Source of the DNA: Laetmonice hystrix
Lineage: Eukaryota
Assembly (NCBI GenBank): GCA_965235115.1
Contig: OZ249436.1
Coordinates: 37,636,001-37,700,000 of the forward strand
Direction: 5' to 3'
DNA: 64,000 bases
Positions 4,696 to 62,784 of the stretch are shown here, piece by piece (the stretch's first letter is position 1; the number at the start of each line of letters is the position of its first letter). The position numbers and the translations under genes were made by a program. The notes under the pieces are model-generated. The model ran no database searches. It was not told the DNA's origin and worked only from the letters and a program-made list of their open reading frames with translations.

Positions 4696-4737
<42 letters not shown>

Positions 4738-11500: not shown

Positions 11501-12400
11501 GTGGTCAAATTGCCTGTCTCTCTTCACGACCTTCTCTTATATAATTGATCTCCGTATTGTTAATTATATATTTTGCCAATTGAAATTTATATTATCTTAA
11601 AGTAGACAGTTTAAAGTCCACACCGTGTAAATATTAAAACGCTGAGCTTATTGTCCTGTAGTTGAGACGTGTCCCAAATTAAGAAAGAGATGACGTTGTA
11701 GATGACGTTGTAGATGACGTCACAAGTCACGTGGCACAAAAAATATGGTACCTAATTAAAGTAGACATAAAACTTTCTAAGGTTCATTAAGAATTATGGC
11801 TCTGGCTCAAATCATGCAAGAGTTACAGCACAGAATCTTCGAAATGACCTAAGTCAAGCCCAAGTTCAAAACTTTCAGGTCACGTGGTTCAGCGAAAATA
11901 GGTCAAATCGCTTATCCACCGAGGAATCTGTTGGAGCTGTCCCTAGAGAGTGCCTCTGCGAAATATTGTCAAGATTTATCCAAAAATGGGGAAGAAGTAA
12001 TGATTTAACCGATTTACGAGCTAGGGACCAGGTCTCTCTAAGTTCAAAGGTCAAAGGTCAAATGAAGGGTCAGACTTATGCAGCACCCTTGCCCGACTAA
12101 AATGCCATGACGGATTTTCGAAATTCCCAAGATGAGGTTCAAAAATGAGCTTTAATGTACACAACACGTTTCACGTCATGACGTCATGACGTGACGTTAC
12201 GTGACGTCATGACGCACCATGAGATCAGAGTTTGTCATCGTGAAGACGTAGCCCAAGTTTCATTGAGATATCTTGAAAAATGACTGAGATATACGTATAG
12301 GTTTACGACTACTACGACTACTACTACTACTACAGGCATAAAAATAAGGAAGACGAAACCAGACAATTTCAAGATCCCTTCCCCTATCGGGGGAAGGGAT
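8565..12400 (-). mobile_element. HINE family B, complete copy B1, with ~1.4 kb of captured non-repeat sequence
   Basis: Left end ctagcccga-CTGATTGC taaa GCAAT acag-gg-ATCCCTTCCC; right end ATCCCTTCCCC-tatcg-GGGGAAGGGAT. Contains an internal ~600-bp duplication and diverged 146-type repeats. Confidence 0.8.
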
Positions 12401-12405
12401 AATAA

Positions 12406-15400: not shown

Positions 15401-16228
15401 TAATTATATATTTTGCCAATTGAAATTTATATTATCTTAAAGTAGACAGTTTAAAGTCCACACCGTGTAAATATTAAAACGCTGAGCTTATTGTCCTGTA
15501 GTTGAGACGTGTCCCAAATTAAGAAAGAGATGACGTTGTAGATGACGTCACAAGTCACGTGGCACAAAAAATATGGTACCTAATTAAAGTAGACATAAAA
15601 CTTTCTAAGGTTCATTAAGAATTATGGCTCTGTCTCAAATCATGCAAGAGTTACAGCACAGAATCTTCGAAATGACCTAAGTCAAGCCCAAGTTCAAAAC
15701 TTTCAGGTCACGTGGTTCAGCGAAAATAGGTCAAATCGCTTATCCACCGAGGAATCTGTTGGAGCTGTCCCTAGAGAGTGCCTCTGCGAAATATTGTCAA
15801 GATTTATCCAAAAATGGGGAAGAAGTAATGATTTAACCGATTTACGAGCTAGGGACCAGGTCTCTCTAAGTTCAAAGGTCAAAGGTCAAATGAAGGGTCA
15901 GACTTATGCAGCACCCTTGCCCGACTAAAATGCCATGACGGATTTTCGAAATTCCCAAGATGAGGTTCAAAAATGAGCTTTAATGTACACAACACGTTTC
16001 ACGTCATGACGTCATGACGTGACGTTACGTGACGTCATGACGCACCATGAGATCAGAGTTTGTCATCGTGAAGACGTAGCCCAAGTTTCATTGAGATATC
16101 TTGAAAAATGACTGAGATATACGTATAGGTTTACGACTACTACGACTACTACTACTACTACAGGCATAAAAATAAGGAAGACGAAACCAGACAATTTCAA
16201 GATCCCTTCCCCTATCGGGGGAAGGGAT
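12406..16228 (-). mobile_element. HINE family B, copy B2 (near-identical tandem copy of B1)
   Basis: Head-to-tail repeat of 8565-12400. Differences are a few substitutions, poly-C length changes and one 12-bp repeat-unit indel. Confidence 0.85.
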
Positions 16229-16242
16229 AATAATAATAATAA

Positions 16243-18444
16243 CTAGTCATGTCGTGGCGAGACCACGATGGATCCCATCCCCGGGGTGACATGTCCTTTC
16301 TGTAATTGAGTTTGAGTAGAGTTACGTTCAAGGCAGACACTTCCCGACACATCTGTGATAGGCAGTGGTGTTTGGGAAGTTCCAGGTAACGTGTCAAGTT
16401 ATGACCGTGAGAGAATATTTATGACATCCTTATGACGTCATAGTAACTATGGCTGCATCTTCAACCATTTACAAGTTATAGCCCAGGGAATATATAGGTG
16501 ACCTCCTTATGACGTCATAGGTCACGTGACGTACAAAACAATGGTGCCAAATGAAAGACCATACATGACCTCCTATTCGTGTTCAATAGTAGCTATGTCC
16601 CTATCTGGCACCGTTTACAAGTTATAGCCCTGAGAAAATGCCAGTGACATTCTCATGACGTCATAGATCACGTGACCTGGAAAACGAAGGTGCATAATGA
16701 AAGAGCATACATGACTTCCTATTCGTGTGTAATAGTAACTATGGCTGTATCTTCAACGATTTACAAGTTATAGCCCTGGGAAAATATTGGTGACGTCGTT
16801 ATGACGTCATAGGTCACGTGACGTACAAAACAATGGTGCCAAATGAAAGACCATAAATGACTTCCTATTCGTGTTCAAGAGTAACTATGGCCCTATCTGG
16901 CACCGTTTACAAGTTATAGCCCTGGGAACATATTGGCGACCTTGCTATGACGTCATAGGTCACGTGACCTGGAAAATGAAGGTATATAATGAAAGAGCAT
17001 ATATGACTTCCTATTAGTGTTTAATAGTAACTATGGCTCTATCTTAAACCATTTACAAGTTATAACCCTGGGAAAATATAGGTGACCTTGTTATGACGTC
17101 ATAGGTCACGTGACTTGAAAAATATAGGTGCAAAATGAAAGAGCACATAAGACTTCCTATTAGTGTTTAATAGTAACTATGGCTCTATCTTCAACCATTT
17201 ACAAGTTATGGGCCTGGGAAAATATAGGTGACGTCGTTAAGACGTCATAGGTCACGTGACCTACAAAATAATGGTGTCAAATGAAAGACCATAATGACTT
17301 CATATTCATGTTCAATAACAACTGTGGCCCTATCTGTCACCGTTTACAAGTTATAACCTAGAGAAAATGTCAATGACATCCTTATGACGTCATAGGTCAC
17401 GTAACCTGGAAAATGAAGGTGTATAATGAAAGATTATATATGACTTCCTATTAGTGTTTAATAGTAACTATGGCTCTATCTCCAACCATTTACAAGTTAT
17501 GGCCCTGGGAAAATATAGGTGACGTTTATGACGTCATAGGTCACGTGACCTCCAAAATAATGGTGTCAAATGAAAGACCATATATGACTTCCTATTCGTG
17601 TTCAAGAGTAACTATGGCTCTATCTGGCACCGTTTACAAGTTAAAGCCCTGAGAAAATGTCAATGACATCCTTATGACGTCATAGGTCATGTGACCTGGA
17701 AAATGAAGGTGTATAATGAAAGAGCATATATGACTTCCTATTAGTGTTTAATAGTAACTATGGCTCTATCTTCAACCATTTACAAGTTATAACCCTGGGA
17801 AATTATAGGTGACGTCGTTATGACGTCATACGTCACGTGACCTACAAAATAATGGTGTCAAATGAAAGACCATATATGACTTCCTATTTATGTTCAATAG
17901 TAAGTGTGGCCCTATCTGGCACGGTTCACAAGTTATACCCATAAATGTCTCAACTGACTGCTGTTGAAAACTTTAAGGTCACGTGGCTCAGTAAATATAG
18001 GTCAAATGGCTAATCCCTCTTTGTATGTTTTAAACCTTTCGATGCAGAGTGGTACTACCTGATATTGTCAAATTTTACCAAGAAATGGAGAAGGGGTAGC
18101 GATTCAACCCGATACTGACCCAGGAGCCCGTTCTCCCTAAGGTCAAAGGTCAAAGGTCAAATGAAGGGTCGACTTGAGACAGGATCCTTGCCTGATTAAG
18201 ACGCCATGATGGGTTTTGAAAATTTCGAATATGACCTTTAAAAATATGGCCCCAATATGTAAGACACGTTTGACGTCATGACGTCATGACGTGACGTGAC
18301 GTGACGTCATGATTAATTGTGTGACCTGACTTTGTCACGGTGAAGACGTGTGCCAAGTTTGATTGACATATCTTGAAAAATGACTGAGATAGACGAAATG
18401 TCTAACTCCTACTACTACTACTACGACGCAAAGAATAATAATAA
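16243..18444 (-). mobile_element. HINE family A, copy A3 (terminus displaced)
   Basis: Family A left end. Ends at (aat)n with no terminal module. Confidence 0.8.
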
Positions 18445-31622: not shown

Positions 31623-31640
31623 TGGTGCCGTGACCAGGAT
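31623..31640 (+). promoter_or_regulatory. Primer-binding site, tRNA-His type
   Basis: TGGTGCCGTGACCAGGAT lies 7 nt after the 5' LTR. It is complementary to the 3' end (ATCCTGGTCACGGCA-CCA) of invertebrate tRNA-His as recalled. Confidence 0.85.
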
Positions 31641-31675
31641 TGGAGCTGTGTGCTGGCGTGAGTTCAAGAGCGGAG

Positions 31676-34582
31676 ATGGACCGGGCAAAGGACAGGCTCA
31701 GGCGGCTGTCTGACTCTATCAGATCGCTGCCTGGCCTACTACGCAGACATGCATCCACCTCCAGTTTAGGCAGCCGACAACGAAGCGATGTCCGGGCAGC
31801 GTACTCCCGGGAGTCGGTTGCACTAAGTGTGCATAGTGACTCCCAAGCTGAGTACGTTGATGCACTCTGTGTGCATAGTTGTGACTCCCCAGAGGAGTAC
31901 GTGGTCACCGACTACGTGCTCCCAACGCCAGACCAGTCCCCCAGCAGTCCACATCAAAGGAACGCCCAGTCCCCCAGCAGTCCACATCGAAGGAACGCCC
32001 AGTCCCCCAGCAGTCCACATCGAAGGGACGCCGACAGCCCCATCAGACTGGCCAGCCCGCCAAGGACAGAGCCCCATTGTGTGAGGCCACCCTCCCACCC
32101 ATCGGGAGATCGCCGCACCCGTCCCACCCCCCGCCCAAGCCAGTGGGTGGGCAGCCCACAGCAGGGTGGACACCATCAGCAGGAGGTCTACCCACAGCGT
32201 GAGGCTCTCACACCGAGAGAAGTTTATGATGACCCCCGTCCCCACAGGGAGCCCCACCGTGGTCACCCCCGTTCCCATATGGCCACACCATATTCCCATA
32301 TCAACCCCCACCCCCACAGAAAAGACTATGATCTCTACAGCCCTGTGTCTCTACGCACCCGCCCCCGATGGCCAAGTCAACGGCCAAGCCACTCAGATAG
32401 TTCGGCTGATGAGGGTGATGGTGGCCACTGCCCCAGATTCAGCGTGCGCCGAGGCAGGAGAGACAGTGAGATAGAGAGATGGCACAGAGACCCCCGCCCA
32501 GTCACCCCCAAACCAATTAGAAGGGACCCATTAAACTTAGACAAGTTCGATGGGAAGGCCCGGGAATGGGAGGATTATGAGGAACACTTCGACCAGGTGG
32601 CTAGTTGGAATGGCTGGACAGATGCCGAGGCTGCCGTGCAGCTGGCGGCTGCTCTGCGACCTCCGGCCAGCACGGTAATGCGGGACCTCCAGCTATCCCA
32701 GAAACGCCACCTTGGGTCACTGAAACAAATGTTAAATAGTAGGTTCGCTCCTGAAGGCAGACAAGTTGCTTTCAGGACGGACTACTATAACCGTTGCCAG
32801 ATAAAGGGTGAAGCTGTAGACGAGTTTGGGCGGGCCCTCAAAGACCTATACAGAAAGGCTTTCCCAGCTACATATGGTAGGGATGAGTACGAATTGGTCG
32901 AACGGTACTGCCAGGGTTTGTGGAGTGAGGAGGTGCAGCAGGACGTCAGAAAGGCTCGATGTCGCACGCTGGAGGAGGCCGTGACGGTGGCTATTGAGAG
33001 CCAGTCAATAGCCAAGGCTATTAAGAGTAGGAGGGGAAGGCTGGCGGCAGTACAGCCTGTCGGGAACACTATGCCTCCTCGCGTGCCAGCTGACGGCCAA
33101 CTGACGGCCCCTGCACCCCTCAGTCCCAACCAGCTGCAGGAACTGATAGTTAAAGCAGTGCGGACAGAGATGACTGACAGATCCCGGACAGGGAGGGAGG
33201 AAAGTATTTGTTTCTACTGCCGAAAGAAGGGGCATTTCCAAGCCGAATGTAGGCTGAGGCAGGAGGACATGAGGCAAAGAAATCCAGTTAGGCAGAGGCC
33301 AAATTATAGAGACGGTGGGAATGACGCAAGGCATAGTCAACCAACTGAGGGACAGTCAAGGAACCAACCACATGATATAAATGATCAGAATTCAAATGAG
33401 TCGGAGATGATACTGGCACTGGCTAGAGAAAAGTGTAAATATGTTAGGGTTGATATTTGTGGAGTTACAGCTGACATGCTGATTGACACGGGTTCGTCGG
33501 TAACAGTGATTGACAAATCAGTTTTTCTGGATATAGAAAGTTCTGCGCGTCCAAAGTTAATCCACAGTGATTCCAAGTTAAGGACTGTCAATAGTGAGCC
33601 CCTTGATGTCTACGGGAAGATAGATGTAGAGCTGGGTGTACAGGGTCATCAGTACAAACATGAGACGATTGTTGCTAACATATGGGGACTGCAGGGTATT
33701 CTTGGTTTGGATTTCATATTAAAGCAAAACGGAGTGATTGACCTGAGGGACGATGTTATCAGATTAAATGGAGTGGCGATCTTCATGCGTTCTGGGTGCC
33801 TTCCCTCATGTGCTCACGTGGGAACAAGCCAGGACGGCACCAGTGGACCCCGGTCGCCGCCCGTCTCCACCCGACACGCACATCAAAGGGATGCAGGGCG
33901 AGATGTCGGCAGAGAGCCTGGACAGAGGGGCATTGTTTTAACTGGTGTCGGGGACGCCGCCCCCACCGTGGAGGCCCTGCTGGACAGCCCAACGAGCTGG
34001 GATCGCCTAGCTGACACCTTCATGGCGGAGCCTAATGAATTTGTTGAGGGCCCCAGTACCCACTTTGGTCGCCAGAGGACGACTGTGCTGCCTGCCAGTA
34101 ATGACCTGCGAACGACCAGGCCTCAGGTTTCCGGGAAGGCAGGTCCAGTCGGTGATGGGCCAGTCGGAACCCTCCCTCCCACAATGCACCCACTGTGGGA
34201 CAGGATGACCGATCCTACATCCAAGGGTCGAGACGGCCATGGAGGGAGAACAAAGGTGGAGCTGTGGGACTCCCCAACACTATTGACGGAGGGGCCACCT
34301 GACTTGCGGGTCGGACCCCATGAGAAGTTGCTCATCAGCGGAGGAGAACCCCCTGATGAGGGTGTTGATGAGGCGTTTTATGGTTTTGATGATGTGAAAG
34401 TTGGGCAGCGACACCCCCTGCCCATTGGCCTGTGGGAATGCAGCCGAGAGATTGGACCATTGAGCTCGGACCATTGGGGAGATCCTCAATGGCCCCCATT
34501 GACGCAGTGGGTCTCAGACACTGCCGGCAGCCTTTCTGAACCCCAGAAGGCGACCCACATGGTGACCACCCCGACATTGTAA
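31676..34582 (+). CDS. gag: Gag-protease polyprotein (low-complexity N-terminus, Gag core, CCHC zinc knuckle, retropepsin)
   Basis: Uninterrupted ORF with first ATG at 31676. Gag-like LDKFDGK..W.DY.EHF...A.WNGW; CFYCRKKGHFQAEC; protease motifs MLIDTGSSVTVI and GILGLDFI. Confidence 0.9.
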   Translation: MDRAKDRLRRLSDSIRSLPGLLRRHASTSSLGSRQRSDVRAAYSRESVALSVHSDSQAEYVDALCVHSCDSPEEYVVTDYVLPTPDQSPSSPHQRNAQSPSSPHRRNAQSPSSPHRRDADSPIRLASPPRTEPHCVRPPSHPSGDRRTRPTPRPSQWVGSPQQGGHHQQEVYPQREALTPREVYDDPRPHREPHRGHPRSHMATPYSHINPHPHRKDYDLYSPVSLRTRPRWPSQRPSHSDSSADEGDGGHCPRFSVRRGRRDSEIERWHRDPRPVTPKPIRRDPLNLDKFDGKAREWEDYEEHFDQVASWNGWTDAEAAVQLAAALRPPASTVMRDLQLSQKRHLGSLKQMLNSRFAPEGRQVAFRTDYYNRCQIKGEAVDEFGRALKDLYRKAFPATYGRDEYELVERYCQGLWSEEVQQDVRKARCRTLEEAVTVAIESQSIAKAIKSRRGRLAAVQPVGNTMPPRVPADGQLTAPAPLSPNQLQELIVKAVRTEMTDRSRTGREESICFYCRKKGHFQAECRLRQEDMRQRNPVRQRPNYRDGGNDARHSQPTEGQSRNQPHDINDQNSNESEMILALAREKCKYVRVDICGVTADMLIDTGSSVTVIDKSVFLDIESSARPKLIHSDSKLRTVNSEPLDVYGKIDVELGVQGHQYKHETIVANIWGLQGILGLDFILKQNGVIDLRDDVIRLNGVAIFMRSGCLPSCAHVGTSQDGTSGPRSPPVSTRHAHQRDAGRDVGREPGQRGIVLTGVGDAAPTVEALLDSPTSWDRLADTFMAEPNEFVEGPSTHFGRQRTTVLPASNDLRTTRPQVSGKAGPVGDGPVGTLPPTMHPLWDRMTDPTSKGRDGHGGRTKVELWDSPTLLTEGPPDLRVGPHEKLLISGGEPPDEGVDEAFYGFDDVKVGQRHPLPIGLWECSREIGPLSSDHWGDPQWPPLTQWVSDTAGSLSEPQKATHMVTTPTL

Positions 34583-43032: not shown

Positions 43033-46000
43033 ATGTCAACGTCGTGCCGTCTATGATGACTGGGGTGCTATGTCCGGCCATGGAGACGCTGCAAACCAGT
43101 ACCCGATAGGTGGTGCCACCTGCCAACCCTGGTATTGTCATTTCGACGGTTTCTCGTTGGGCATCCGCATCCACGCTTTTCCAACCATCTACAGTAAAAA
43201 GGTAGGCCTAGATGTATAGGAAGTGTTGATCCGTGCCATGCTTGTGTTGGAAAGGGGGAGTAGAGTTGGCGGGGAATATGATTTAATATGAAATGATTTT
43301 AGTCGTAATTATCAATCCTTGAATCCCTCGGCTGGGTTGTGTTTCACAAAATGTAGTTACCACCAGTATATTTTCAATAGGGATTTTAACGAACGACACG
43401 ATTACGATGGCTGTGAGTAGTGTGAAAAGGCTGGTTTTGGCGCACCTGACCCTATGTTATTCCAATGGGCCAAAAACGCCCCGCCAGTAGAGCCCCGCCA
43501 GCTGCAGAGGCGGGTCTCTGGGGTCACCCTGGGGTCACCCTGCGGTCACTGGGTCACGTCAGCGTTATGGACCAGCTGCAGAGGCGGGTCTCTGGGTTCA
43601 CCCTGCGGTCACTGGGTCACGTCAGCGCTATGGACCACCTGCAGAGGCGGGTCTTTGGGGTCACCCTAGGGTCACCCTGGGGGTCACCCTGTGGTCACTA
43701 GGTCACGTCGGCGCTATGGATAACAAGTCGACTCCTGCAGACGGAAAATGCCCTGCTATATTACCCAACAAGTCGACAAGAACCCCCCCCCCCGACGTCA
43801 GGGCTATTTATAGTCCCTGGGTCACCCTGGGGGTCACTGGGTCATGGGGGGTATGGGGGTGCGTGCGTCTGTATGGCTGGATGGATGAATGGACGGACAG
43901 ATGGTGTTTTCATTCACATATGGGGGGTGGGGTCTGTGACCCATAGACTTATAGGAGTTAGATGGGGCCGTTAGTCGAGAACGGTACTCGCCACGGGAAG
44001 GCCGCCCCAAAGGAGCACCATCTAAAATTTGGATGGGCAGGTCCGAAAAGTTTTCCTATAACTACAGGGTGAGTCCACCTAATGTTTCCTCCCCAAAAAG
44101 CTTCCCTATAACTACAGGGTGAGTCCACCTAATGTTTCCTCCCCTAAAAGCTTCCCTATAACTACAGGGTGAGTCCACCTAATGCCCTCCTATGCCTATA
44201 TACAGGGTGAGTCCACCTAATGTTTCCTCCCCAAAAAGCTTCCCTATGTCTATGTACAGGGTGAGTCCACCTAATGTTTCCTCCCCATCTCTATTATTTA
44301 CAAATACATGACCATGGGAATCATAAGCAAACATGAATGGTTTACAGCTAAATTAATAGCGTGCCAGTGACCATATTGATGATAAGTGGTTTACAACTAA
44401 ATTAATAGCATGTCAGTGACCACAATGATGATGGGTGGTAGATGACCTCAGCTTTCTACTGCAGTAATCTACCATCATGGTTCAGACTACATTACATAGG
44501 ACTTCCTGAGGATGATGTTTGCATTATGATACCCACAGGGTGGCCTCCTAGACGTTTTGAAGGTCTGACTGTTTCACCCACGAGTTGAATTTTTGTGGCC
44601 AATATTTCCATTTCACATAGACCATTTTGTTTTTCCCTTTTCCTTTATGCCTAATTATGTTTTCCACCTTCCAAATGTCGTTAGACGTCACTTTCTGAAG
44701 CTCTTCCTGATAAAATGTCCCGGTGACCTCATCGTTTTGGAAATCTATTAATTTGTAAAGGGGAAGACCTTTACGATGGAAGCGTTTGAAAATCTTAAAC
44801 ACCTCACCCGTCCATTTCTCGTCGTATTCTCGACTGAAGGGGTTGCGCAAATAGCTGATTCTCACATAGTCACCCATGTCATATTTAAAAGCTCTAGCTC
44901 GTTTCTTTGAAAGATAAGGCCAATACAGGTTCCACCAAAGGATCGTTTCGTTTTCCTTTGACACATCCGCTGGACTCATCTTGATGGAACGATGGTAGGT
45001 GTGATTGTAACTCTCAGCTATATCAGTTAGTATATCCACATAGTTGTAGGTTTGTTTTGCGGTGAAAAATCGGTAAATCCTAGATTTGACACTTTTAATC
45101 ACACGTTCTGCATAGTTGGCTTTGACTTCGTTTTGTGTGACAAAGTGGTGGACTTCGTTCTTCTTGAACATGACCTGGACAATTTTAGCCCGAAACTCCT
45201 GTCCCTTGTCACTTCGAAGATACTTAGGGCGTCGGCCTTCAGCCAAGACCACTTCAAAGGCGTGAGCCACTTCAGACCCTGTTTTTGTTTTGAGTGGTTT
45301 TAACCATAGGTAGCGAGAGAAGACATCGATGACGACCAATACAAAACGGACACCATTGTTAAATTTGGATAAACGAGTAAAGTCAATAAGGTCAGCATCC
45401 CACTGATCATCAATGCCAGATACGACCACTTTGCTTCTCTCGAATCTTCTCGAAACAGGTTTGTGAAGAGTGTAAGACTCTTGTTTTCGGAGCCATTCTT
45501 CAATGCTGTGTAAGGTGTATTGCTTCCCGTCAGTTAAAGTAGCTTTATACAGTTTTGAAGCACCCCCAAAACTGGCCGGATGTTTTGGATCATAGTACAA
45601 CGAAGTCAGGTAGGCGTCCATCCTCTACCCTGTCCCCATCGACAAATGAGTGAAAGTGCCGAATGTTTGTCTTATATGGCCTACACCTCTTTGTCCGTTT
45701 CTTCTTCTTCGTTGTCTGATTCTTCTTCTTCTTCATCTGATTCTTCTTCATCAGACTCAAACACTTCCTCGAATTCCAGTTTACGCTTGGTGAGTGCCTG
45801 TTTGATGGCTGCCTTTGTTGACATGCCGCCTTTTACAAGACTTTCTGCATGATCCAGAATAGCCTCTGTGACATGGTTGTGCCTCACATCCAGCGCTGTT
45901 TCCAGAAAATGTCTATACAAAGTAAAGAACTTCCCTATGTCGTCTCCCCGCACCAACCGATTGGCTCTCTTTTTAGCCTCGTCTATGGCTACTCCATTCT

Positions 46001-49000
46001 CAGTGAGTCGGGTGACCTCATTTTCCAAAGTTTCACTGTTTTCTTCTCTGGCTTTTTCCCATAATTCTATCATGGAAGGATAGTCAGCGATGCTGTCTTC
46101 TGTTTCAGTTTCAACATCATCATCTACTTCTTCCTTATCTGTTTCCTCCATGGTGCTAAGCCATTCGCCATTGAGATCAACACGTTTCTTTTTGTTAACG
46201 GGTTCAAGGTCGTCATTATTGTCTGGGCACCATTTCCGTATGTGTCTGTGTAGATCATACATGTTTGAAAACAACTGTCCACAATCTTCACAAGCATAAG
46301 TGTTCATTGTCGTAGGCTTCTTTTCCTCAGCCATGTGAGATGTATGATGTGGTGTCGTCTGTTGTAACCTGGGAGTGATGTGAGCAGGTCGACGGCCAAG
46401 TGGCAACTGAGGTGAATGACCAAAGACACTGCTTTTTATAAGTCTCTGCGAGTCTGGTGTAGTAGGCTTTAGATCCACCAACAAGTAGCCATAGGGTTCT
46501 CGTGTTGCATCCTCGAAAGCCTCCATGAAATATACAGTGTTACTGGGGTACATTTGTCTGCCGAAAGTCATTACTTGCTGTTTGTCTCCTGGGCTTTTGA
46601 ACAAAACCAAATAATGTGCATTGCGTCGTTGAGTTGGATCCTTATTGAAGTATAGATTTTGTGATAGGACGATGACAGAGAGGTTGCGATGATGGGACCC
46701 TTCAGTGAACAAGTCGGTGACCTGGGTATCTTTGGCTGCAGACGACATTAAATCGTCTAACACGATCAAATTTCTGGCTGAGGGATCGATGAAGCTATCT
46801 TGATCCAGATCGTGAGGGATGCCTTGGATAAATTCCACACAAGGTCGTACTGTATTTACAATGTCCGTATATAATGGCTGCCATCGCTTGTAAAGCCAAA
46901 TGATCCTCTGAGGCTTAGGTGAAATGTGCATTTGTTGCAACATATTTTTCACAAATGTAGTTTTCCCACATGCAGTCGGTCCACTCACGATCATGGTGAA
47001 AGTATGTTGAAACGGGTGTCTCTCCATATCCTGGTTGGAGAGGACTTGTTCTGATTCTTGTTCAGGAGTGACTCCCACTGGAGTGACTCCCACTGGAGTG
47101 ACTCCCACTGGAGTGACTCCCGGAGTGACTCCCGGAGTGACTCCGGGAGTGACTCCGGGAGTGACTCCGGGAGTGACTCCCGGAGTGACTCCGGGAGTGA
47201 CTCCGGGAGTGACTCCCGGAGTGACTCCGGGAGTGACTCCCGGAGTGACTCCCACTGGAGTGACTCCCACTGGAGTAACTCCCGGAGTGACTCCGGGATT
47301 TGCCCCACTTGGTGTAGGTAAACCAGTAGAAGTTTGTTGTCCAGTAGTATGAAACCGTGACATATGCCTAACGAGGTTGCTGTGTCGTGTGAAGGTCATA
47401 TGACAAGCTTGACAAACGTGAACTCTAACCATGATGTGCACCTCGCCACGTCTGAATAACGACTGACCATTTGTGTAAAAATCACTGTGTTTTATAGTGA
47501 CCATAGGCTAAGGTATCACAGCCGTTGTCCAGGATATACCGCTTGTCATCATAGGGGGAGAGGCTCGTTTTGTTCAAACACACAGTATAAAGTTCATGGT
47601 TGAAACTGCGAATCTGAGCCATTGTGTTCATCTTTGTGACCATATCAAAAAGTGTTTCTCTATAGTCTTTATGACGAAGTTGGTTTTTTTTTACTACCGC
47701 CCGGCTTATTCCTTTGGCTGTCTTTTTCTCTTTTCCAGCATAGAGTAAACTGTACATTTTCGATCTCAGGCCTACAAACTCGGAAGGTGGTACTCCAGCA
47801 CATTCATCCTTCATCTTACCTAGCACTTTTTTATTGACTGTGCTGTGGAGAAAATGGTCTTGGGGGTAGTCTGACGTATCGAAATGGCAAGCATCAGCGG
47901 CCATATCCATGTAGATGTCTGCCGTCGTTATTTCATAGCAGAGGCTGTCTGTGTCTGTGAACAGTAATTTTGCTTTTTCTTGATACTTCTGAAGTATGTA
48001 GGAGTAGTGAAAATCATACATGAGGGTCTTGGAAAGATCCAGAATGCAGAATCCAACGTAGATGGGTCGGTTCAATTTCAGTTTAGCTTTTCTCATGTGC
48101 ACTGCAGCCAGGTCTTCGTTAAACAGTTTAAAGGCATGAAAGGTGGGTTTACACGCCAGTTTCTTGACTTTTTTCTCAGAGTTGACCAGTTTAACATCAA
48201 TACGTTTGCGAAGATTTTCCATGGTTTTGCCAAAGACGCTGTTGTTCATCAACTTGAAGAAATCTTTCTGAAAATCGTTTGTAGCTGCTTTTCTTTTTTC
48301 CGTATTGAAATCAATGTAGTCTTTAAGCCAAGGTTTCTGTTGAAAGGCTAGCACGCGATGAACCTTGGTTAACACCATACCTAGAGATAAATAGAGTTTC
48401 AGGTTACGATAATGTAGGACGTAACGGGTTTTGGATTGTAGGTTTGGGACCAGTTTGCCGACTGAACCACTGCTGTGATTTAACGTCTGACAGTAGGAAG
48501 AGAGCATGTCGGCAGTGACGGTTAGTTTTTCAGGTGCAAGTGGGTAGTCGCTATGTAGGTCATGAAGATGTGAAGGGTAATCCAGATCTACTTCTAATAT
48601 ATATCCTTCCTTGCTGTCATCAGGTACCGTTGTCACATCGACGGGATCAGTCCAATAGAAACCGTGGGTGGGTAGAGGTTCTGACATGGCCCATCCGTAC
48701 AGGTTGTTGGCATCCAGATACATGATATATTTGGTGGGACTGTTTGGATCGAAGTCCGGGAGGTAAGGGTTGTTTGCCTTAGCGTAGCGGTTGGATATCA
48801 TAGATATACCACCTCGCAGTCCTTTCTCAATGAACAGGTGCATGTCCAAATCAGTCAGCAGCTCCAACTTTTGGTCAGTCATTTTTAAGCACGCCTGCCA
48901 AGCAAGACCAGGGGAGGTGTAAAAGTGAGCCGGGTCCAATTCGTAATAGGTAAGACAAACCACTCTAAAGTTTTCAAACACGTCAGCAAGCTGTAGCGTA

Positions 49001-52000
49001 TCAGACAGCAGATAGAGATCGTGGTATTCTCCCATAGATGTGATTTCAAATGCCTCCCACACCTGGTTTGCATGTGAGTAATCCTCTTCTGAAATGGACT
49101 CTCCTGTGAGTATATTATCAAATGCTGATCGTGATGGAAGCTGTGTGTCTTGGAGTTTAATAGGTGAATCGACGTAATCATAGGGGTAGACCCCCTTTCG
49201 CAGTAGCAATGGCATCTGACTTTCGTTGAAACGAGCTTGGAGATGTTTAAATTCTTTAATATTGGACACAAGTTTTCCTAAAGATGCAGGTAGGAACTGG
49301 TAACTGTCGATGAAATCCATGGAGCCCATAGAAAACGACACATATTTCTCCATGTTGTTTGGAATGCATTTGACCTCTTTGTCAGCTTTGCCTATTGCTT
49401 GCATAATCAGGTGGGCATCGTACCCCCTGAGGTTGTGAAAGATGACAGGGATGCGATTGCGCAATCTGTAGTTCACGTTACACTCGTTATGGGCTGCACC
49501 TCGGAACGTACCTGTGATGTGACAGTGATCCCTCACACGGTCGTCCCCCAGTGTGTTGTGACAGATGTGACAGTGCTCTGTAGTCTGGAACGCTCTCCAG
49601 TCCTCTACTGTCATGTGAAGTGGTTTGGGGTTTTTATACACGAAGTCTAAGCGGTCTTGTAATTTTAACATCTGTTGAATAAATGTGTCTGCTACGTCCG
49701 GGCCCCTGTAGATGACAGGATCTTGAGAGAAATCGTCGTTTAACCCCACCAATTTGTAGGCGAAACCTGACGGGACGTGTTGGGTCAGCTTGTGAGTATA
49801 AGAGTGAGATGGGTCAGGAGAGCACGTGTCTATTTTGGTGGCAAAACACTCAAAATCAGCGTAGATGACATGGGGCACTTTTAACTGCTTCGATATGTCT
49901 GTGTAGGAGAGCCACTTGTCTTCCTCTGCCGGGAGTTCAATCTTCTGAGGACCATGAATCTGACAGTATGGGATGTGATCTGTCAGTAGAGTTTCTTTGG
50001 TAAATCCGTGGAGACAGTAAGGACAAAAATACCGACGGTTGTTCTTTTTGGTTTGATCAAATAGCAACCTATTTAAGTTCTTAATCCAGCAGTAATGCGA
50101 CTTTCTCCCATCTGTGAGTATCAACAGATTCACGTGTCTCTCAAACCGTTCGGTAGTAATGCGTATGGGTATGACCTCTCCCTTCTCATAGCCGAACACG
50201 TTGATGGAGATCTGGTTCAGCCTTTCAAATTTGGTGATGTCGGGTATCTTCACCGGATATGCTATCCCTGTCATATCCAGTGTTTCCACCTTTTCCATAT
50301 ATTTTGTTGTGCGTTGAGGGTCCTTGTTCACAGGAAACAGGGCAGCCAATACGGACCAAAGGAAGCATTTCTTGTCCTTATTCTCCACATTGATGATGGC
50401 GTGCTTCGACCTGAGTTTATTTGGTAGAGGTATGTAACTGGATCCTCTCAGAGGTTGATACTGAGCCATGTGTAAGGTTAAGGCGATGATGTGATCTAGT
50501 ATCCAATTACTACCCTGTCGTTGGTAGTCGGTAAACGACTGGTGAATTTTCTTCACAGAATCCTGGAATCTGACCTCGATATCCTTAGGCTTTAGTGCAA
50601 TCTGGCACGTTCCTCTAAAATGGGGGGCCACCGTTTCTTTTTTCTTATCCTTTTTAAACTGGACTTGGATGGATAGGTACCACTTCACAGCACCTTTCTC
50701 TGCCTTCAGACGATCGACGATTTCATCCATATGTTTTCCGATAAAGATCATCGGATCTTTTTCATGAACAGCTTGAATACTTGCTGTTTTTAGTGAACCA
50801 TTCACTGCTGCTCGTTCAAAGAAGGTTTGGCATTCAGCATGACGCTTCCTATGTCGATTTAGCTCATCTTTTCTCTTGAAAGTGGAGCCACATGTCGGAC
50901 AGGTGAACCTCTTGTTGACTCCATGTGCAGTTTTCTTATGTCGTGTCAACCCCTTCTTATATTGAAAGCTTTTGTCACATTCTTCACAGGGAAAAGGCTT
51001 CATGTTGATGCTTTGACGTCTCAGGAAAGACTAAACAGGTAATGCATTGGATTATATTTTCATTGCGGGGGTAAGTCTATTATGACTGTTGGGGAGGGGG
51101 GGGGGCGGGTGTCCAATAACAATGAACAATCATCATTCTACCCTACATCGTTGTTCCTCAGTCAGCCTGTACACGCCCATCTGCTGGGTGTAAATGGACT
51201 CTTCTACTAACCTCTCTAAGTTAATATATGCATGCATGCATGCATGCTTGCATGCATAGCGGCTACATACAAGCACCCAGACGCACGCACCCCCATACCC
51301 CCCATGACCCAGTGACCCCAGGGTGACCCAGGGACTATAAATAGCCCCGACGTGGGGGGGGGGGGTCTTGTCGACTTGTTGGGTATTATAGCAGGGCATT
51401 TTCCGTCTGCAGGAGTCGACTTGTTATCCATAGCGCCGACGTGACCTAGTGACCACAGGGTGACCCCCAGGGTGACCCTAGGGTGACCCCAAAGACCCGC
51501 CTCTGCAGGTGGTCCATAGCGCTGACGTGACCCAGTGACCGCAGGGTGAACCCAGAGACCCGCCTCTGCAGCTGGTCCATAACGCTGACGTGACCCAGTG
51601 ACCGCAGGGTGACCCCAGGGTGACCCCAGAGACCCGCCTCTGCAGCTGGCGGGGCTCTACTGGCGGGGCGTTTTTGGCCCATTGGAATAACATAGGGTCA
51701 GGTGCGCCAAAACCAGCCTTTTCACACTACTGCTGTGAAACGCACCCGGGTAGTCTATCAGTAAATATAACCTGAAACAATTTAAAGGGAGGGCAAAGAT
51801 ATGTCCATAAACCTATCCAAAAACCAATAAAAACAACAACCAACGCCTAAATTGATGCCCTAATGAGAGTAGACACGACGGTGTATAGAGTTTGTCTCAG
51901 AGTCGCTTCATTAGTGAGAAAAAAAAACACCGAATATCTCATTTATGTCAAATGCAGACATGGACTGTTAATTTAGATAACGCCTTCGGCTACATAAATC

Positions 52001-56933: not shown

Positions 56934-58440
56934 AATTCTTTGTGTGCCATCCTAAAAGTAAAGGCCAAAACACTTATTACAATGATCTAAACTGCAGGTG
57001 ACTTGCAGAATTCCAGAGCTGTCCTATTGCCCCGTAGTGCTCCGGAGGACAATTTTTCCGTAGGACTATGTCCTCCCAGTCTTGACCCGGATCAACCACC
57101 ACAGTACTCCCCCCCCCCTACCCCCTACACACACGCCTTTTTTTAGGCTGCAGGTCGGCAACCTCTCCCAACGAAGATCGCCCAACTATACTGATGGTCT
57201 GAGGGGACAAAGGAGGGCAGTGACCTCAGTAGAATGCCGACTGTGGTTGTGTTGGATCGTCAGATCAAAGACTCATATAATGTCTACTCTTCATTGCGAC
57301 AAGATGGCCAGACATGCAGGGTCTGCATAACCTCGGCCCATCACCACCAGCCAAGGTTTCCTGAGCGAATTTGGATTATGATATATCACACACCAACTAG
57401 AATCCAACGAGAATAATATAGTAGTGTTTACATACCAGTATGACTTTAGTTGAGCTGTTAGCAAATTACACAGGTACTTCGTCTCGGCCTAAGCTATGTA
57501 CAGTAGTTGTATAGATGACGGCCGTACCGTGTAATTATGCATGTATATCTCCTTCCCTATAGCTGTCCTCTTCCATGCTCTTCTCTGGTATTGTCAATCA
57601 GATCTGGAGGTTCAGTATCTTTGGGTATTATGGTTCTCATAGTAGCCTACCAGGGCCGGGGGCAGACTTGGCAGCACATGACTATAAGTTATACCCGTTA
57701 TCTTGATGATAACTGCTAAACGGAAGTTCCCCACATGACCCCTATTATAATATATGCTTCTAGTATTTGTCCTTCGCGCTATAAAAACAAGTCCTTCAAG
57801 AATCAAGAGATAAATAAAACACCAACTTGGGCTAGTGGTAGCTATGAGGACTGATAGTTATAGGCTTATCTTCGGATATCCTATTATTACACGAAAAATG
57901 ACAAATAGACCTATAGACAGATCAACCTACCCTACGGCAATAGGTCTATAACTTTAAGCAGTACATATTTGCGCCTTATCAAATCCAGCAGTATTTTTAC
58001 CTTTATTGGGTGATCTCAAGATAAGAAAGGGTAATTAATAACCAGCCCTGAAGTAGATATGATCTTCATGTATTTCCACTTATTGCCTAAAGATGTTTCA
58101 GGACGCCTTAATCCGCCACATTAGTCAGTGTCACCCCCGCCCCCAATCAGGCAGACCTCGCCTTGTTGACACAGACCAGGATCCTAACGCCCGTCAACTT
58201 GATAATAGTATTGTAATATCCTTGCCTCTATCTCTGCTGCCATTAAACGAACAAAACTACTACGGTACTCATGTCCGGGTTGACCGTTCCGTTGTCGCGT
58301 TACTACTGCAGTTCACTTCCCGCTCTCTTCGGGCGAGAACAAGCCCGTAGCCAGAATTTCGGTTTGGCAGTGGACTGAATAATTGAATTGAATTGAAAAA
58401 GGGCGTACCCTTCTGTTTCATGCTGCCTAGTGCTTTTCTA

Positions 58441-60175
58441 CGGTGGCCGGTTAGTGAAAACGACGATTACAAAAGAGGAAACACGTTTACAAATTAAAAA
58501 CGACGAATGCAAAAGAGAAAACACGTTTACAAATTAAAAACGACGAATGCAAAAGAGAAAACACAAACGCAAAAGTTAGAACGGCGATTACAAAACAGAA
58601 ACCACGACCACAAATTCAAAAACGCAAAAACAAAAGAGAAAACACAAACGCAAACGCCAAAACGGCAATTACAAAACAAAAACCGCGAAACAAATTCAAA
58701 CACGCAAATGCAAGAGAGAGATCACAAACGCGAACAACAAGTTGGCGTGTAGCACGCTTACAAGAATGGTATCCATGTTCGGGGCCCAGGGACGACCAGG
58801 GCGAGTCTAAGTGGACAGGGGTGTTTGCACTCTGAGTAGTTCTGGCGATACTGAGACGCTGCGGTAGGAGATTGGCATAAGGGAGCCAAAGTCTCGGACA
58901 TGCGCAACTCGTTCCAATTCCTACTAGGGCGGAAACTGTCCACGGGTGTGACTAATTACCGAAATCTACCGGAATATACCGAAATCTACCGGAATATACC
59001 GAAATCCAGAAACCCCATGACTAATTACCGAAATCGACCCCCAAAATTACCGAAATCGACCTCTAGTTGTGTTTGAGAGCCCCCAAACTTACTGAAATCG
59101 ACCTCTAATTGACTTTATAGGAGCCCCCAAATTACCGAATTCGACATCTAGTGTTGTTTGGGAGCCCCCAAACTTATCGAAATCGACCTCTAGTTGTGTT
59201 TGGGAGCCCCCAGATTTCGGTAAGTTTGGGGGCTCCCAAACCCAATTAGAGGTCGATTTCGGTAAGTTTGGGGGCTCCCAAACCCAATTAGAGTGGGTCG
59301 ATTTCCGTAAGTTTGGGGACTCCCAAACACAACTAGAGGTCGATTTCGGAAGTTTGGGGGGTCCCAAACACAACTAGAGGTCCATTTCGGGAAGTTTGGG
59401 GGCTCCCAAACACAACTAGAGGTCCATTTCGGTAAGTTTGGGGGTCGACTTCGGTAATTAGTCATGGGGTTTCTGAATTCCGGTAGATTCCGGTAGATTT
59501 CGGTAATTAGTCACACCGGTGCGGGGGTCGGTGCCCCCGGCCGGTGCCCCCGCCCCACCCCGGCAACGCCCCCCCCCCCGACAATGACCCCCTAAATCCG
59601 CGCCTGGCCCGTTGGATCCGCCACTGCATGGATGGAGGAGCCACGCCAAAGCCCAAACACGCTAAAAAGGTTGCCTTTGGAACGAGTTTGATAATGTGCC
59701 TCCCAACTCGAAGTCGAAGTTTACGTCGAAGTCGAAGTCGAAGTTATGGTCGGTGTCTCAGTAAATGTATGTACATCGAGCTGGAAGTCGAAGACTTTCC
59801 CTTCAGGTATTCCATAGCAAGCCTCGGTAGATGTCACCTCAGCTCATCCCTGTCCCACATTTACACTTAGACTCGTCCTGGTCGACTCTCGGCCCGGAAC
59901 ATGGATATCCTTTTTGTAAACGTGCTTCACGCCAAGTTGTTGTTTGTGGTGTGAGAGGGATTTGTATTCATCGTTTTTGCTTTTGTATTTGTCGTTTTGA
60001 ATTTGTATTCTTCGTTTTGAATTTGTATTTGTCGTTTTTGCTTTTGTATTTGTCGTTTTGCTTTTGTATTCGTCGTTTTAAATTTGTATTTGTCGTTTTG
60101 CTTTTGTATTTGTCGTTTTGCTTTTGTATTTGTCGTTTTGAATTTGTATTCGTCGTTGGCACTAATCGGCCACCG
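58441..60175. mobile_element. Foldback-like element with TA flanks and modular inverted arms
   Basis: TA-CGGTGGCCGGTTAGTG...CACTAATCGGCCACCG-TA. The arms contain ~20-bp subrepeats (aaaacgacaaatacaaaagc) and a matching unique segment (58735-58815 vs 59863-59945). Confidence 0.75.
58945..59517. repeat. Nested palindromic element made of ~39-bp subrepeats
   Basis: GGTGTGACTAATTACCGAAATCTACCGGAAT...ATTCCGGTAGATTTCGGTAATTAGTCACACC; orientation flips at ~59210. Confidence 0.8.
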
Positions 60176-60983
60176 TACTTTTCAATATACATTGAACAAA
60201 AATATAAACGCAACGCTTTATTTTTTTTCAATATAAACGCAACGCTTTATTTTTTTTTTCAATATTCCGCAAAATTATTTCTGTGATTGACTTGGTGGGT
60301 TTTCATTAGGTGACCAAGGTTGTGTGCTACTGGTCTGTGTACAGTTCAGTCACCTTCGCCATATCATTGTCCATTTCATGCCCTTTGTGAAAATTGGCCC
60401 GTCAGTAAGGGGCCTGATCCAGAGCTTGAAATCAGGTATGGTCAACCCAGGCACACCCTGTCTTCTGGTCAATGAAAGGTCAACCCAAAAGTCACAGTTG
60501 AGCCATTTTTCAAAATGCCACCGATGATTCAAAACCTAAGGTTCTAACGTATCTTGAATTTCATTTACAATTCTAAACGGCCTGCGATATCATGGCTACA
60601 TATCAGCGAGTATATTGTTTATCATGTGGCTGTGGTCATTTATCATTATTCTACCGAGTTACCGAGTGCTATTCTAATCTCTCTTGCATAAGGTTTCTAC
60701 ACAAAACACGGACAACTGATGCGATGGTTACCGTTATTATAGAACGATTGACTAAGGTTAATTCTGACAAGTATATAGTTAAATATATTGTATGAATGAA
60801 AGTAATAAATACATCAGCGAGCTCATCATCTTCCGTCATTTTCAAAGGTCGAGGCTCTACACTGCTATTATTTCATCTGGTTGAAGCTGATGGCGAAAAT
60901 GTGAGAAAATCGATTGTACGGTTATTGTCTGTTTTAGAAAACCGGACTGAGCATTTCCTCAGAGCAGTAACGTAGAACACTAA

Positions 60984-61730
60984 AGCTGCTTGTACCTGAA
61001 CACGGTATACGGAACGCGGAAAACGGAATGCGTATAGGCCTAGACGTCTGATCGCTCTAAACGGGTTTCCCTAAAGATATCCGTTTATATGGCCACGGTG
61101 TGCGGAACAAGGAACGCGGGATGCGGAGGCGGAGGCGGGCGCGGGCGGAAAAAATCGATCCAACGTATTTCCCTTTAGCTGTCTCCACGACGCGGGTGCG
61201 GCTGCGGAGCGGGTGGACGGGCGCGGACGCGTTTGTTTTATTGCTCATGTAGGCCAAATGAAACACCAGCATTTACCTCAGGGCAATAAATGCCACAATT
61301 ACGTTGTCTGAATGAAGTAATTAACGAGTCACCGCCCAATGTATGACGCCGCTGGTTCTTACCTTGACCTTCTTGTGTGTTCATCAGAGCCGAATGCTGC
61401 ACACCGCGGCGTATTGCGTAACATTACCTGTTACTCTGCTCACAGACCTTGTCCACACGATGTTTGGAGTCCCAGTCTTTGTAAACGTTTGTAAACGTCC
61501 GAGGTGTTGAACACACAAGTAGAACCAGCGGCGTCACACATCGGGCAGTTACACGTTAATTACTCCATTCAGACAACGTAATTGTGACATTTATTGCCCT
61601 GAGGTAAATGCTGGTGTTTCATTTGGTCTACGAAACCTTATTTACCGTGGGTGTTTACCCTGCCTTTAACGCGGTATGGGCGCTACACCGCATTCCGTGT
61701 TCCGCAGACCGTGTTCAGGTAAAGGCAGCT
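60984..61730. mobile_element. MITE-like inverted repeat with a nested second MITE
   Basis: AGCTGCTTGTACCTGAACACGG...CCGTGTTCAGGTAAAGGCAGCT. Confidence 0.6.
61252..61628. mobile_element. MITE with ~110-bp TIRs and TA flanks
   Basis: TA-GGCCAAATGAAACACCAGCATTTACCTCAGGGCAATAAATG...CATTTATTGCCCTGAGGTAAATGCTGGTGTTTCATTTGGTC-TA. Confidence 0.8.
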
Positions 61731-62784
61731 GTGGCGTGTCGCCAATACATCCGCAGGAGGCCTATAAACATTTGTTGGAGAAATCCTGTGCACGAATTAC
61801 TTTTGCAAGACTTTGTACCCACAAGTCTATAACAAAATAGATAAATTACTATACCAAAGAGCATAATAAAGGATATAAAAGTACATATGTATACATGCAT
61901 ATTATACGAGTACATTGAGGGGGATGCATTTGTCTCCCATCCTGTGTTCGATGTATGTCTAGCCAGCAGCTGGCGGCCTGGCAAGCTCTCTAATAACAGC
62001 TGTGTGTTGCCAACTATTCGAGGAGATTTTCAAAGTATAGTTCCAGGCCTGCCTCTGTGATAAAGAGTTATTACAATACAGCTGCACTCAACAGGGTGCA
62101 GGTGAATCGAACTCATATCAGTTGGCTTCTATATCGTGACAGGTATAAACTGCCATCGGCGGGGTTTAGATATAATGTATAGAAAATAAAATAAATAAGA
62201 TACATGTGTCTATGATGACCGTCTATGAAAACCGCCTTCCTGTATTTCCATCTATAGATAAAAACAAACACATCACATTAGTCTACATTGGGAGACTACT
62301 TTTTGAAGAAATGTCTATGGTGGCTTGGAGGTGAGTTAATAGTTGTTGGAAAGACTAATCATGACCTAAGGATGGTATTCTTCACAAACGGGGGGTGGGT
62401 GAGTGAAAGAGGGATGGAAAAAATTAAAAAGACATAAAATCTTTAAACAAGTATAGCTCATTTATTTAATTGAGGGAGGCCGGGAAAGGCTCAAACCTCC
62501 AAATCCCAATATCTGGTCCTTTAAGTAGTGTGTGTGTGGGGGGGGGGCATTAATAGCCTATCAGTATTTGCGAGACAACACGTAGTATGTCGTTATTACG
62601 ACTTAGTAGTAGAACAAATTAATTTAATTTAATTAATTAATTAATTAAATTTCATCGGCCGACTCGTGAATCAGCCGAAAAAAGTTTGACATGACGTCAA
62701 GCTTTTCTGTTCGGCCGACTTTTCCCAGCGATTGAGAAAAATCGGCCGACTCTGAAATAATAGCACATGCAGTGGGAACGCGGC

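Follow-up and report, generated by a model that had tools for sequence, protein, structure and literature searches.

A three-gene, capsid-less Polinton lineage with a zinc-finger-fused packaging ATPase in Laetmonice hystrix, a putative satellite of capsid-coding Polintons

Introduction

What does a Polinton that has no capsid genes do with a packaging ATPase? This question is raised by an 8,316-bp element (43416..51731) in a 64,000-nucleotide stretch of the Laetmonice hystrix genome (contig OZ249436.1), the whole of which is hereafter called the window. The text of Krupovic et al. (2014) emphasises the loss of the ATPase in concert with the capsid genes. Two of the 72 rows of its Table S1, P_Pd1.1 of Platynereis (10.8 kb) and P_Gi1.2 of Glomus (11.0 kb), list an ATPase and no MCP, penton, or protease; these elements resemble the one described here in being capsid-less and ATPase-positive, a likeness at the level of table entries. 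In the literature consulted, we found no description of capsid-less Polintons with a zinc-finger ATPase and just these two tabulated cases with an ATPase, although Repbase may contain such families.

Architecture of the element

The element begins with AGTAGT (43416) and ends with ACTACT (51731), and GCTGTG directly abuts both ends as a 6-bp TSD (Table 1). Its TIRs are identical over the outer 345 bp and differ deeper inside by three substitutions and two single-base indels. Between them lie three stop-free ORFs, all on the minus strand, encoding pPolB, an ATPase fusion, and an integrase. A preliminary description of the locus had claimed an 8.3-kb element with a perfect TSD, near-perfect TIRs, and three intact, tightly packed, co-oriented genes, and had judged the remaining non-TIR space too small for a capsid gene; all of this is borne out. 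The gaps between TIRs and genes measure ~676 bp and ~275 bp, the left one consisting mainly of 49–50-bp tandem repeats, and at either end of the element the longest frame free of stops (151 and 146 aa) falls mostly within the TIR repeats. A hidden capsid ORF or spliced gene was ruled out, none being found in the gaps. The element has neither room nor an ORF for an MCP, no MCP profile matched the family copies, and a minor capsid protein and an adenain-like protease are absent from both the element and these copies.

Table 1. Positions of the features in the window.
Feature	Position	Strand	Remarks
TSD GCTGTG, left copy	43410..43415	.	single copy in empty allele
Left TIR, 456 bp	43416..43871	+	starts AGTAGT; internal 63-bp and 11–12-bp GGGTCACC repeats
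Subterminal tandem repeats, 5 x 50 bp and 2 x 49 bp	44046..44439	.	non-coding
RVE integrase with C-terminal chromodomain, 357 aa	44548..45621	-	D-D-E motifs at ~aa 75, 138, 172
ATPase fusion, 607 aa	45681..47504	-	Pfam Pox_A32 and zf-C2H2
Near-palindromic GGAGTGACTCC array encoding the VTPG linker	47065..47298	.	symmetry centre of three palindromic copies at other genomic sites
pPolB (DNA polymerase B, protein-primed), 1173 aa, N-terminal zinc fingers	47482..51003	-	exonuclease and polymerase motifs
Right TIR, 454 bp	51278..51731	-	terminates ACTACT
TSD GCTGTG, right copy	51732..51737	.	

The 1173-aa ORF, which we take to be pPolB from its exonuclease and polymerase motifs, matched zf-C2H2 and not PF03175 in the Pfam scan; because of the missing PF03175 match, the polymerase is likely of the Beta type. 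In the pPolB search, 7994 of the 8000 scored candidates lay at E<=1e-100. The integrase carries the Pfam domains rve and Chromo, with PF00665 above the cut-off.

With pPolB, an RVE integrase, an A32-type ATPase, long TIRs, (AGT)2//(ACT)2 ends (known for Polintons; PMC8097293), and a 6-bp TSD, the element has the features of Polinton/Maverick transposons (polintoviruses; Beta adintoviruses, Starrett et al. 2021). Among the virus features of polintoviruses and adintoviruses, the A32/FtsK packaging ATPase is present, whereas the MCP, minor capsid protein, and adenain-like protease are absent. Unlike intact vertebrate elements of 12.7–24.6 kb, this one is only 8.3 kb long, lacks six of nine core genes (PM, PZ, minor capsid, PW, MCP, and protease), and encodes, in place of an ATPase of ~230–250 aa, a fusion of 607 aa that also contains two zinc fingers and a helical C-domain.

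The family in the genome

The element belongs to a family of at least 16 full-length three-gene copies (8.1–8.7 kb), the same layout with different TSDs for which the preliminary description had proposed a search. All 16 are flanked by perfect 6-bp TSDs, no two alike, and a pre-insertion allele with a single GCTGTG was bridged by sequencing contigs in three of the four runs of one sample; insertion is therefore not a chance resemblance. All three ORFs are open in six of the 16 copies. Subfamilies reach down to ~78% identity, and the layout is common to subfamilies at saturated synonymous distance. The closest capsid-coding element (L073) shares 46–57% (pPolB), 45–49% (ATPase), and 40% (integrase) protein identity and has no DNA-level match to the three-gene element. 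The preliminary description's view of a streamlined, self-replicating and self-integrating lineage is thus upheld by the multiple copies, the old subfamilies, the want of a near-identical capsid-coding parent, and selection on the ATPase (below); its counter-case, a unique internal deletion of a near-identical full-length Polinton, does not fit at least 16 copies and no such parent.

Deletion derivatives are common in the family. They include pPolB-less copies that keep integrase and ATPase parts (L016–L018) and a pPolB-only derivative integrated without an ATPase in cis (L061); the TIR-bearing loci L162–L165 are truncated or miniature copies only. The genome also holds a tandem array of five copies and three independent fold-back (palindromic) copies. 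One apparent capsid-linked relative (L188, at C20) was rejected: it consists of short pieces of the family within a degraded cluster, and the MCP of this cluster shares 90% identity with the canonical L174 family.

The zinc-finger-fused ATPase

The ATPase ORF, which overlaps that of pPolB by 23 bp, encodes in order a zinc finger, a VTPG repeat linker, an A32/FtsK-type ATPase (aa ~165–355; PF04665 above the cut-off), a second zinc finger (aa 403–424), an all-helical C-domain without a family match (aa ~470–580), and an acidic tail. Its Walker A, Walker B, SHHRN, and Q motifs are those of canonical Polinton ATPases, the catalytic motifs are fully conserved in 83 aligned homologs, and the predicted fold is closest to the STIV B204 packaging NTPase. 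The array encoding the VTPG linker is not kept in older subfamilies and was therefore rejected as a general packaging signal.

Searches of Pfam, PDB sequences, and the atlas assigned the C-domain to no family. With a profile rebuilt without ATPase–protease fusions, it has no detectable kinship to PM, the canonical partner of the ATPase (hhalign probability 3%); its identification as a diverged PM, PZ, PW, protease, penton, or MCP was rejected for lack of homology, as was a match to JetA, which lies below the cut-off and is likely a coiled-coil artefact.

Purifying selection acts on the ATPase core, even though no capsid gene is present in cis. Its dN/dS is 0.02–0.08 against six young copies, 0.15–0.20 against three, and 0.065–0.081 against three old-subfamily copies (dS above 2), these values being pairwise, hence not independent, with one decayed-copy pair at 0.90. 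Neutral evolution of the ATPase, which the preliminary description had named as fatal to its proposal, is contradicted by the range of 0.02–0.20. The second zinc finger and the C-domain are less constrained, with dN/dS of 0.15–0.57 against old subfamilies and 0.5–4, on few changes, among young copies.

Relatives and candidate helpers

Fused ATPases of this type appear to form a single clade, which is new here and occurs in many mollusc records. Some of its members accompany capsid genes: in L121 and L122, a ZF-clade ATPase occurs with an MCP, protease, and penton, the former being a 6.0-kb element with inverted-repeat ends and no pPolB or integrase; in L182, of similar make-up over 7.3 kb, the fusion (62% identical in its core) lies directly behind an MCP and a protease. 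Other members recur without them: L086, a TIR-bounded 10.6-kb contig, encodes only an Alpha-type pPolB, the ATPase fusion, and an integrase, and a capsid gene is found on none of the 13 metagenome contigs that combine a fused ATPase with an integrase (7 of which reach >1 kb beyond the integrase, and several of which may share one host) versus six of nine canonical ones.

The preliminary description had also called for a search for co-resident capsid-encoding Polintons, and many MCP loci were indeed found; an element without capsid genes thus shares its host with capsid-coding Polintons. Comparison of the three-gene TIR with 16 loci retrieved around matches to canonical ATPases or MCPs gave no match. 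The MCP of L121, which accompanies a ZF-clade ATPase, shares no more than 36% identity with any resident MCP; the motor would therefore need to engage a distant capsid. Among viral contigs, the ATPase alignment search returned one canonical Polinton and no three-gene member, and the pPolB search returned none.

A second resident family (4.7–6.6 kb) carries only a ZF-type ATPase and a PW gene between its TIRs. These TIRs are 80–90% identical to those of the capsid-coding family L055/L168, from which the PW gene (frameshifted in some copies) also derives; this family therefore shares a cis-signal with a capsid-coding family, whereas the three-gene family shares none among the loci compared. In place of the remaining L055/L168 content there is a ZF-ATPase-C cassette that has 48% identity to that of the three-gene element; the ATPase of L055/L168 itself is 30% identical. 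Judging from these comparisons, the ATPase+PW family appears to have captured the cassette independently, between TIRs that stem from a capsid-coding Polinton.

Interpretation and alternatives

We lean, with some reserve, towards an old multi-copy three-gene Polinton lineage, self-replicating and self-integrating, that packages its DNA by its own ATPase into capsids from co-resident capsid-coding Polintons. The element inserts at new sites with 6-bp TSDs, as the empty allele attests. A linear extrachromosomal form, suggested by knowledge of the family and by the three fold-back copies, would be replicated from the TIRs through protein-primed strand displacement and reinserted by the integrase. 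The ATPase, with its motor motifs, viral packaging NTPase-like predicted fold, and purifying selection, would act next: by analogy with TerS, the extra zinc fingers and the helical C-domain may favour the element's own DNA or grip foreign capsids, yielding putative particles that contain three-gene DNA. For this satellite reading we count the lineage, selection, the intact motor, the context in L182, L121, and L122, the ATPase+PW capture, the resident MCPs, and the recurring layout; against it, the three-gene TIR without a helper match, resident MCPs at no more than 36%, the missing PM, the less constrained C-terminal part, the frameshifted PW, the limited reach of the 13 contigs, and the non-independent dN/dS values.

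The motor might instead have been repurposed in a pure self-synthesizing transposon, where it would move, tether, or resolve the linear replication intermediate or pass it to the integrase. The lack of a TIR in common with the capsid-coding elements compared, the absence of PM, PZ, PW, and protease alike, the spread of L016–L018 and the palindromic copies with integrase and ATPase parts kept, and zinc fingers that suggest DNA binding all speak for this reading; we nevertheless regard it as rather unlikely, since the fusion adjoins an intact MCP and protease in L182, the ATPase+PW family pairs the ATPase with a capsid-module gene and not with replication genes, L061 integrated without it, and capsid-less canonical Polintons usually lose the ATPase as well (PMC4028283). 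Somewhat less plausible still is a two-component virus, with the three-gene element as replication–integration segment, TIR-bounded capsid-only elements of the L121/L122 type as structural segment, and the fused ATPase on each. Bidnaviruses offer a precedent as bipartite pPolB viruses (PMC8502044), and L121 and the similar L182 have the appropriate gene content, but no partner turned up in the genome (best match to the L121 MCP, 36%; 40 of 97 and 40 of 43 candidates scored in the TIR searches), the four extra TIR-bearing loci fetched have no capsid gene, and the 43 pPolB loci of the family all lie more than 60 kb from any MCP match.

That the ATPase is mainly a dominant-negative poison of capsid-coding Polintons, guarding the host or the niche of the element while packaging little of its own DNA, strikes us as improbable: uptake of the cassette into a non-autonomous family of helper origin, the tandem array, and the faster-evolving C-terminal part would suit it, but a mere poison has no need of catalytic motifs conserved throughout the homologs, and the copies are young, dispersed, and without domestication. 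That an ordinary Polinton recently underwent an internal deletion and that its ATPase is decaying, a reading for which the frequent deletion derivatives might speak, is scarcely credible given the layout shared across saturated synonymous distances, dN/dS far below 1, and the distance to L073; it is refuted, barring a near-identical capsid-coding parent in an unassembled haplotype.

Relation to known systems and significance

On the satellite reading, the nearest counterparts are the SaPI/PICI phage satellites, which likewise combine an integrase, replication genes, and one packaging gene without a capsid, and whose TerS steers preferential packaging (PMC6092414). Those are bacterial, contribute a DNA-recognition subunit and not, as here, the whole motor, and have proven helper dependence, whereas that of the three-gene element is putative. 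Transpovirons and cytoplasmic linear plasmids are capsid-less descendants of the polinton-like lineage that lost the morphogenetic module (PMC11161782); the three-gene element, unlike these, retains a motor on which selection acts, and it inserts itself into the genome of an animal. A transpoviron, which has a pPolB–S1H helicase fusion and a giant-virus association (PMC11161782), was rejected as its identity, no helicase domain appearing in the Pfam scan.

New here are the fused-ATPase clade and the ATPase+PW family within the TIRs of a capsid-coding Polinton. Surveys that require an MCP and a penton and at least 10 kb (PMC11131425) would have missed such elements. A motor kept under strong selection without capsid genes, together with its capture by a second family, is hard to explain unless capsids are supplied in trans or the motor has another job, and either answer would be new. 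This one host, whose young helper and putative satellite families are readily distinguished in particle DNA, allows a sharp test.

More broadly, and with a little more doubt than belief, we suggest that animals (at least molluscs) may harbour an undescribed guild of Polinton satellites, in which one clade of ZF-fused packaging ATPases is passed on as a cassette between elements without capsid genes, elements without a polymerase, and capsid-only elements, and diverts helper capsids to the carrier's DNA, as a eukaryotic counterpart of TerS-type phage satellites. Virions of animal Polintons are a long-standing question, with particles not observed according to the sources cited (PMC8097293, PMC10748475); such a guild, if real, would be indirect proof that they arise often enough for parasitism.

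The element and its copies

The element in the window is a Polinton under the transposon definition and, by gene content, not a polintovirus. Its preliminary description, as an 8.3-kb insertion with a TSD, near-perfect TIRs and three intact, co-oriented ORFs, holds: the TIRs (456 and 454 bp) differ by three substitutions and two indels, all within the inner 110 bp, and the interior is filled by the ORFs, leaving gaps of ~676 and ~275 bp that contain tandem repeats and lack any ORF large enough for a capsid, as expected from the claim that a capsid gene would find no room. The pre-insertion allele (43409 joined to 51732) is present in contigs from three of four public runs of a single sample, which is possibly the assembly’s own source and indicates polymorphism or heterozygosity rather than population frequency; read depth within the element is mostly 10–30 times that of the left flank in public runs.

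Features of the window and related elements of the same genome (G000)
Feature	Position or locus	Strand	Size	Remarks
Three-gene element	43416 to 51731		8,316 bp	begins AGTAGT, ends ACTACT; GCTGTG flank on each side
pPolB		minus	1173 aa ORF	
ATPase fusion		minus	607 aa ORF	
Integrase with chromodomain		minus	357 aa ORF	
Integrase+ATPase derivatives	L016-L018		4.3-4.9 kb	each with TSD
pPolB-only derivative	L061		6.4 kb	with TSD
Miniature	L165		1.5 kb	with TSD
Second (ATPase+PW) family	L028-L042, L079, L204-L207 (G000)		4.7-6.6 kb	TIR elements
146-bp tandem repeat family	700-17100 and beyond			large, dispersed; ~90 overlapping 300-nt matches inside the window
ORF	31634-34582		982 aa	resembles Ty3/gypsy gag-protease by what we take to be a zinc knuckle and an aspartic-protease motif
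Nested inverted repeats	58439-60177 and 60977-61737			probably non-autonomous DNA transposons

Searches of the same genome (627 Mb, 35 contigs) gave at least 93 matches to the element DNA (40 scored of 195 candidates) and 126 to the ATPase, the latter in identity bands near 98–100, 91–94, 77–82, 48–51 and 31–37%. The first 27 family loci fetched comprise 15 full-length three-gene copies (8.1–8.7 kb), three palindromes, three copies lacking pPolB, and six that are truncated, broken by an interruption or only partly covered by the fetched stretch. Far from being unique, the window copy is one of 16 full-length copies, no two of which share a TSD; all three ORFs are open in 6, and four are of older subfamilies (~74–79% DNA identity) with the same gene order and no extra gene. 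The shortened derivatives, all flanked by TSDs, have moved too. In L061 (joined region 6474-12832), the inner TIR is 85–88% identical over ~210 bp to the unrelated Alpha family L055/L168, an apparent sign of inter-lineage recombination. Along contig C19 (16.9–20.1 Mb), many short ATPase fragments (~60 aa, 43–47% identical) and two recurring near-identical TIR fragments probably sit within a large repeated unit.

Relation to capsid-coding Polintons

Capsid-encoding Polintons are co-resident (77 MCP matches; e.g. L073 and L055/L168). The nearest, L073, shares only 46–57% protein identity in pPolB, 45–49% in the ATPase and 40% in the integrase, and blastn gives no match. Around 43 family pPolB loci, picked by hand with 40–65% matches and one 71% fragment (contig C20) excluded, none of the 48 MCP loci falls within 60 kb; the fragment, considered as a capsid-linked relative, proved to lie in a degraded cluster adjoining another family’s MCP. 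The element is not a deletion product of a resident full-length element. Two capsid-coding Polintons of this genome carry additional genes, namely an RNA ligase 1 gene (RLIG1, E 3e-102; L047:5837-6847) and a TBP-like gene (L044:3205-3567).

The three-gene lineage is real, old and recently mobile, and almost certainly capsid-less, replicating and integrating itself; the streamlined lineage first proposed is thus borne out by multiple copies, older subfamilies of the same layout, the lack of a near-identical capsid-coding parent and purifying selection on the ATPase.

The ATPase fusion

By pairwise Nei–Gojobori comparison with the window copy (ATPase core of 191 codons; pairs mutually non-independent), core dN/dS is 0.021–0.083 against six young copies, 0.15–0.20 against L016-L018 and 0.065–0.081 against L022/L025/L026 (dS 2.1–2.6); against L021 and L024, dS is saturated and dN 0.11. 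Against older subfamilies, the integrase gives 0.13–0.24 and pPolB 0.07–0.12 (0.17 in one 81-codon remnant). Constraint is looser in the region of the second zinc finger and C-domain (0.15–0.57 old; 0.5–4 young, with few changes), and the pair L017/L018 gives 0.90. Because dS for one and the same pair differs strongly from gene to gene, the subfamilies may have exchanged modules.

The motifs of the fusion that we take to be Walker A, Walker B, SHHRN and the Q motif agree with those of canonical Polinton ATPases. An AlphaFold model of aa 155–585 (mean pLDDT 82) comprises ATPase, zinc finger and all-helical C-domain, with STIV B204 genome-packaging NTPases as best PDB fold matches (E 2e-7).

A search with aa 160–580 returned 331 proteins. 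Among the best 120, the C-domain is present in 102 (profile made from 72 of them) and named sources are Mizuhopecten, Mytilus, Pecten, Pinctada, Solemya, Ruditapes, Mya and Mercenaria; among pPolBs of named source, those of Gigantopelta, Mytilus, Pecten and Haliotis come closest, a kinship that makes a mollusc or some other lophotrochozoan the likely host. In a quick, midpoint-rooted IQ-TREE of 124 cores, with sampling biased by the fusion query and without most of the 120 proteins or the 27 genome copies that were broken or near-identical, one branch (SH-aLRT 90) splits 68 C-domain rows from 29 PM-followed canonical rows (27 unlabelled; L097 counted as C-domain despite an additional weak PM match). 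Judged from these sequences, the fusion forms a widespread clade.

Canonical elements have the order ATPase, PM, PZ, integrase, penton, PW, MCP, protease (PM, PZ and PW named by position, after section 7 of PMC8097293). In a survey of 80 metagenome loci (kept of 199) and one viral locus, a capsid-module gene is found on 0/13 contigs with clade ATPase and integrase (7 reaching >1 kb beyond the integrase; several possibly one host’s) and on 6/9 canonical contigs. Contig L093 has the window element's gene order of pPolB, fusion and integrase, and L086 (10.6 kb, inverted-repeat ends) has no genes but the fusion, an Alpha-type pPolB and a broken integrase. An adenain-like protease is fused in frame to the ZF-ATPase, beside a penton gene, in L092, L134, P0041, P0065, P0099 and P0108; a CARD plus RING cargo gene (L097:3217-3735) is found in a 4.2-kb mini element that has the fused ATPase and is bounded by inverted repeats.

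Palindromic copies

Three copies (L001, L011, L019) lack pPolB, have a TSD each and form near-perfect palindromes of the integrase end, with arms 99.4–99.8% identical and the centre on a GGAGTGACTCC array. They are of separate origin, since their nearest relatives differ (window group, 99.9%; L007/L008, 99.5%; 95.7% at best). They would best be accounted for by strand-displacement copying of a linear form, fold-back at the self-complementary array and subsequent integration. Snap-back genomes are known from adenoviruses.

Retention of the motor

In the openly readable literature outside Repbase and most subscription papers, we found no description of the three-gene lineage, the fusion or the candidate satellite family, though preprint supplements may list such elements (papers covered include PMC10748475, PMC11296320, PMC6092414, PMC11131425, PMC8502044, PMC9683012 and section 10 of PMC11161782). 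Table S1 of PMC4028283 has 2/72 capsid-less, protease-less, ATPase-positive rows (columns taken from page layout), and two other sources describe mobile polB-less polintons of insects (bioRxiv 10.1101/2025.02.07.637071) and propose autonomous replication modules (10.64898/2026.10.13.758929).

The 48–51% ATPase band is a second family, with TSDs in 6/6 copies checked and one ZF-ATPase-ZF-C ORF (489–493 aa) followed by a 96-aa PW, broken in some copies; within-family dN/dS is 0.07–0.33, with few changes. Five units form a tandem array on contig C8. Because its TIRs and PW are 80–90% and 70% identical to those of the capsid-coding L055/L168 family, whereas the ATPase native to that family shares only 30% identity with the window ATPase, it appears to be a non-autonomous offshoot that lost polymerase, integrase and capsids and gained a foreign motor.

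That the three-gene lineage keeps its ATPase as a neutral relic is scarcely credible, the core dN/dS lying at 0.021–0.20. Interference is a slim prospect and a part in a two-component virus an improbable one, while an intracellular, repurposed role, though unlikely, deserves some weight. We lean towards packaging into helper capsids, against which stand the three-gene TIRs, for which the 16 loci retrieved near canonical ATPase or MCP matches gave no counterpart, and the resident MCPs, at most 36% identical to that of L121. For it speak the uptake of the same motor type on L055/L168-like TIRs and the clade ATPases adjoining capsid genes: L182 (filed in a bacterial MAG, likely as host contamination) carries MCP, protease and a ZF-ATPase-C fusion (core identity 62%), and L121 (L121:1-6013, between inverted repeats) and L122 carry MCP, protease, ZF-ATPase and penton, all three contigs without pPolB or integrase; clade ATPases also adjoin capsid genes in L110, L092 and L187. 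Such neighbourhoods are compatible with a fusion that could serve as packaging motor, and the three-gene lineage would use it to package into the capsids of a helper.
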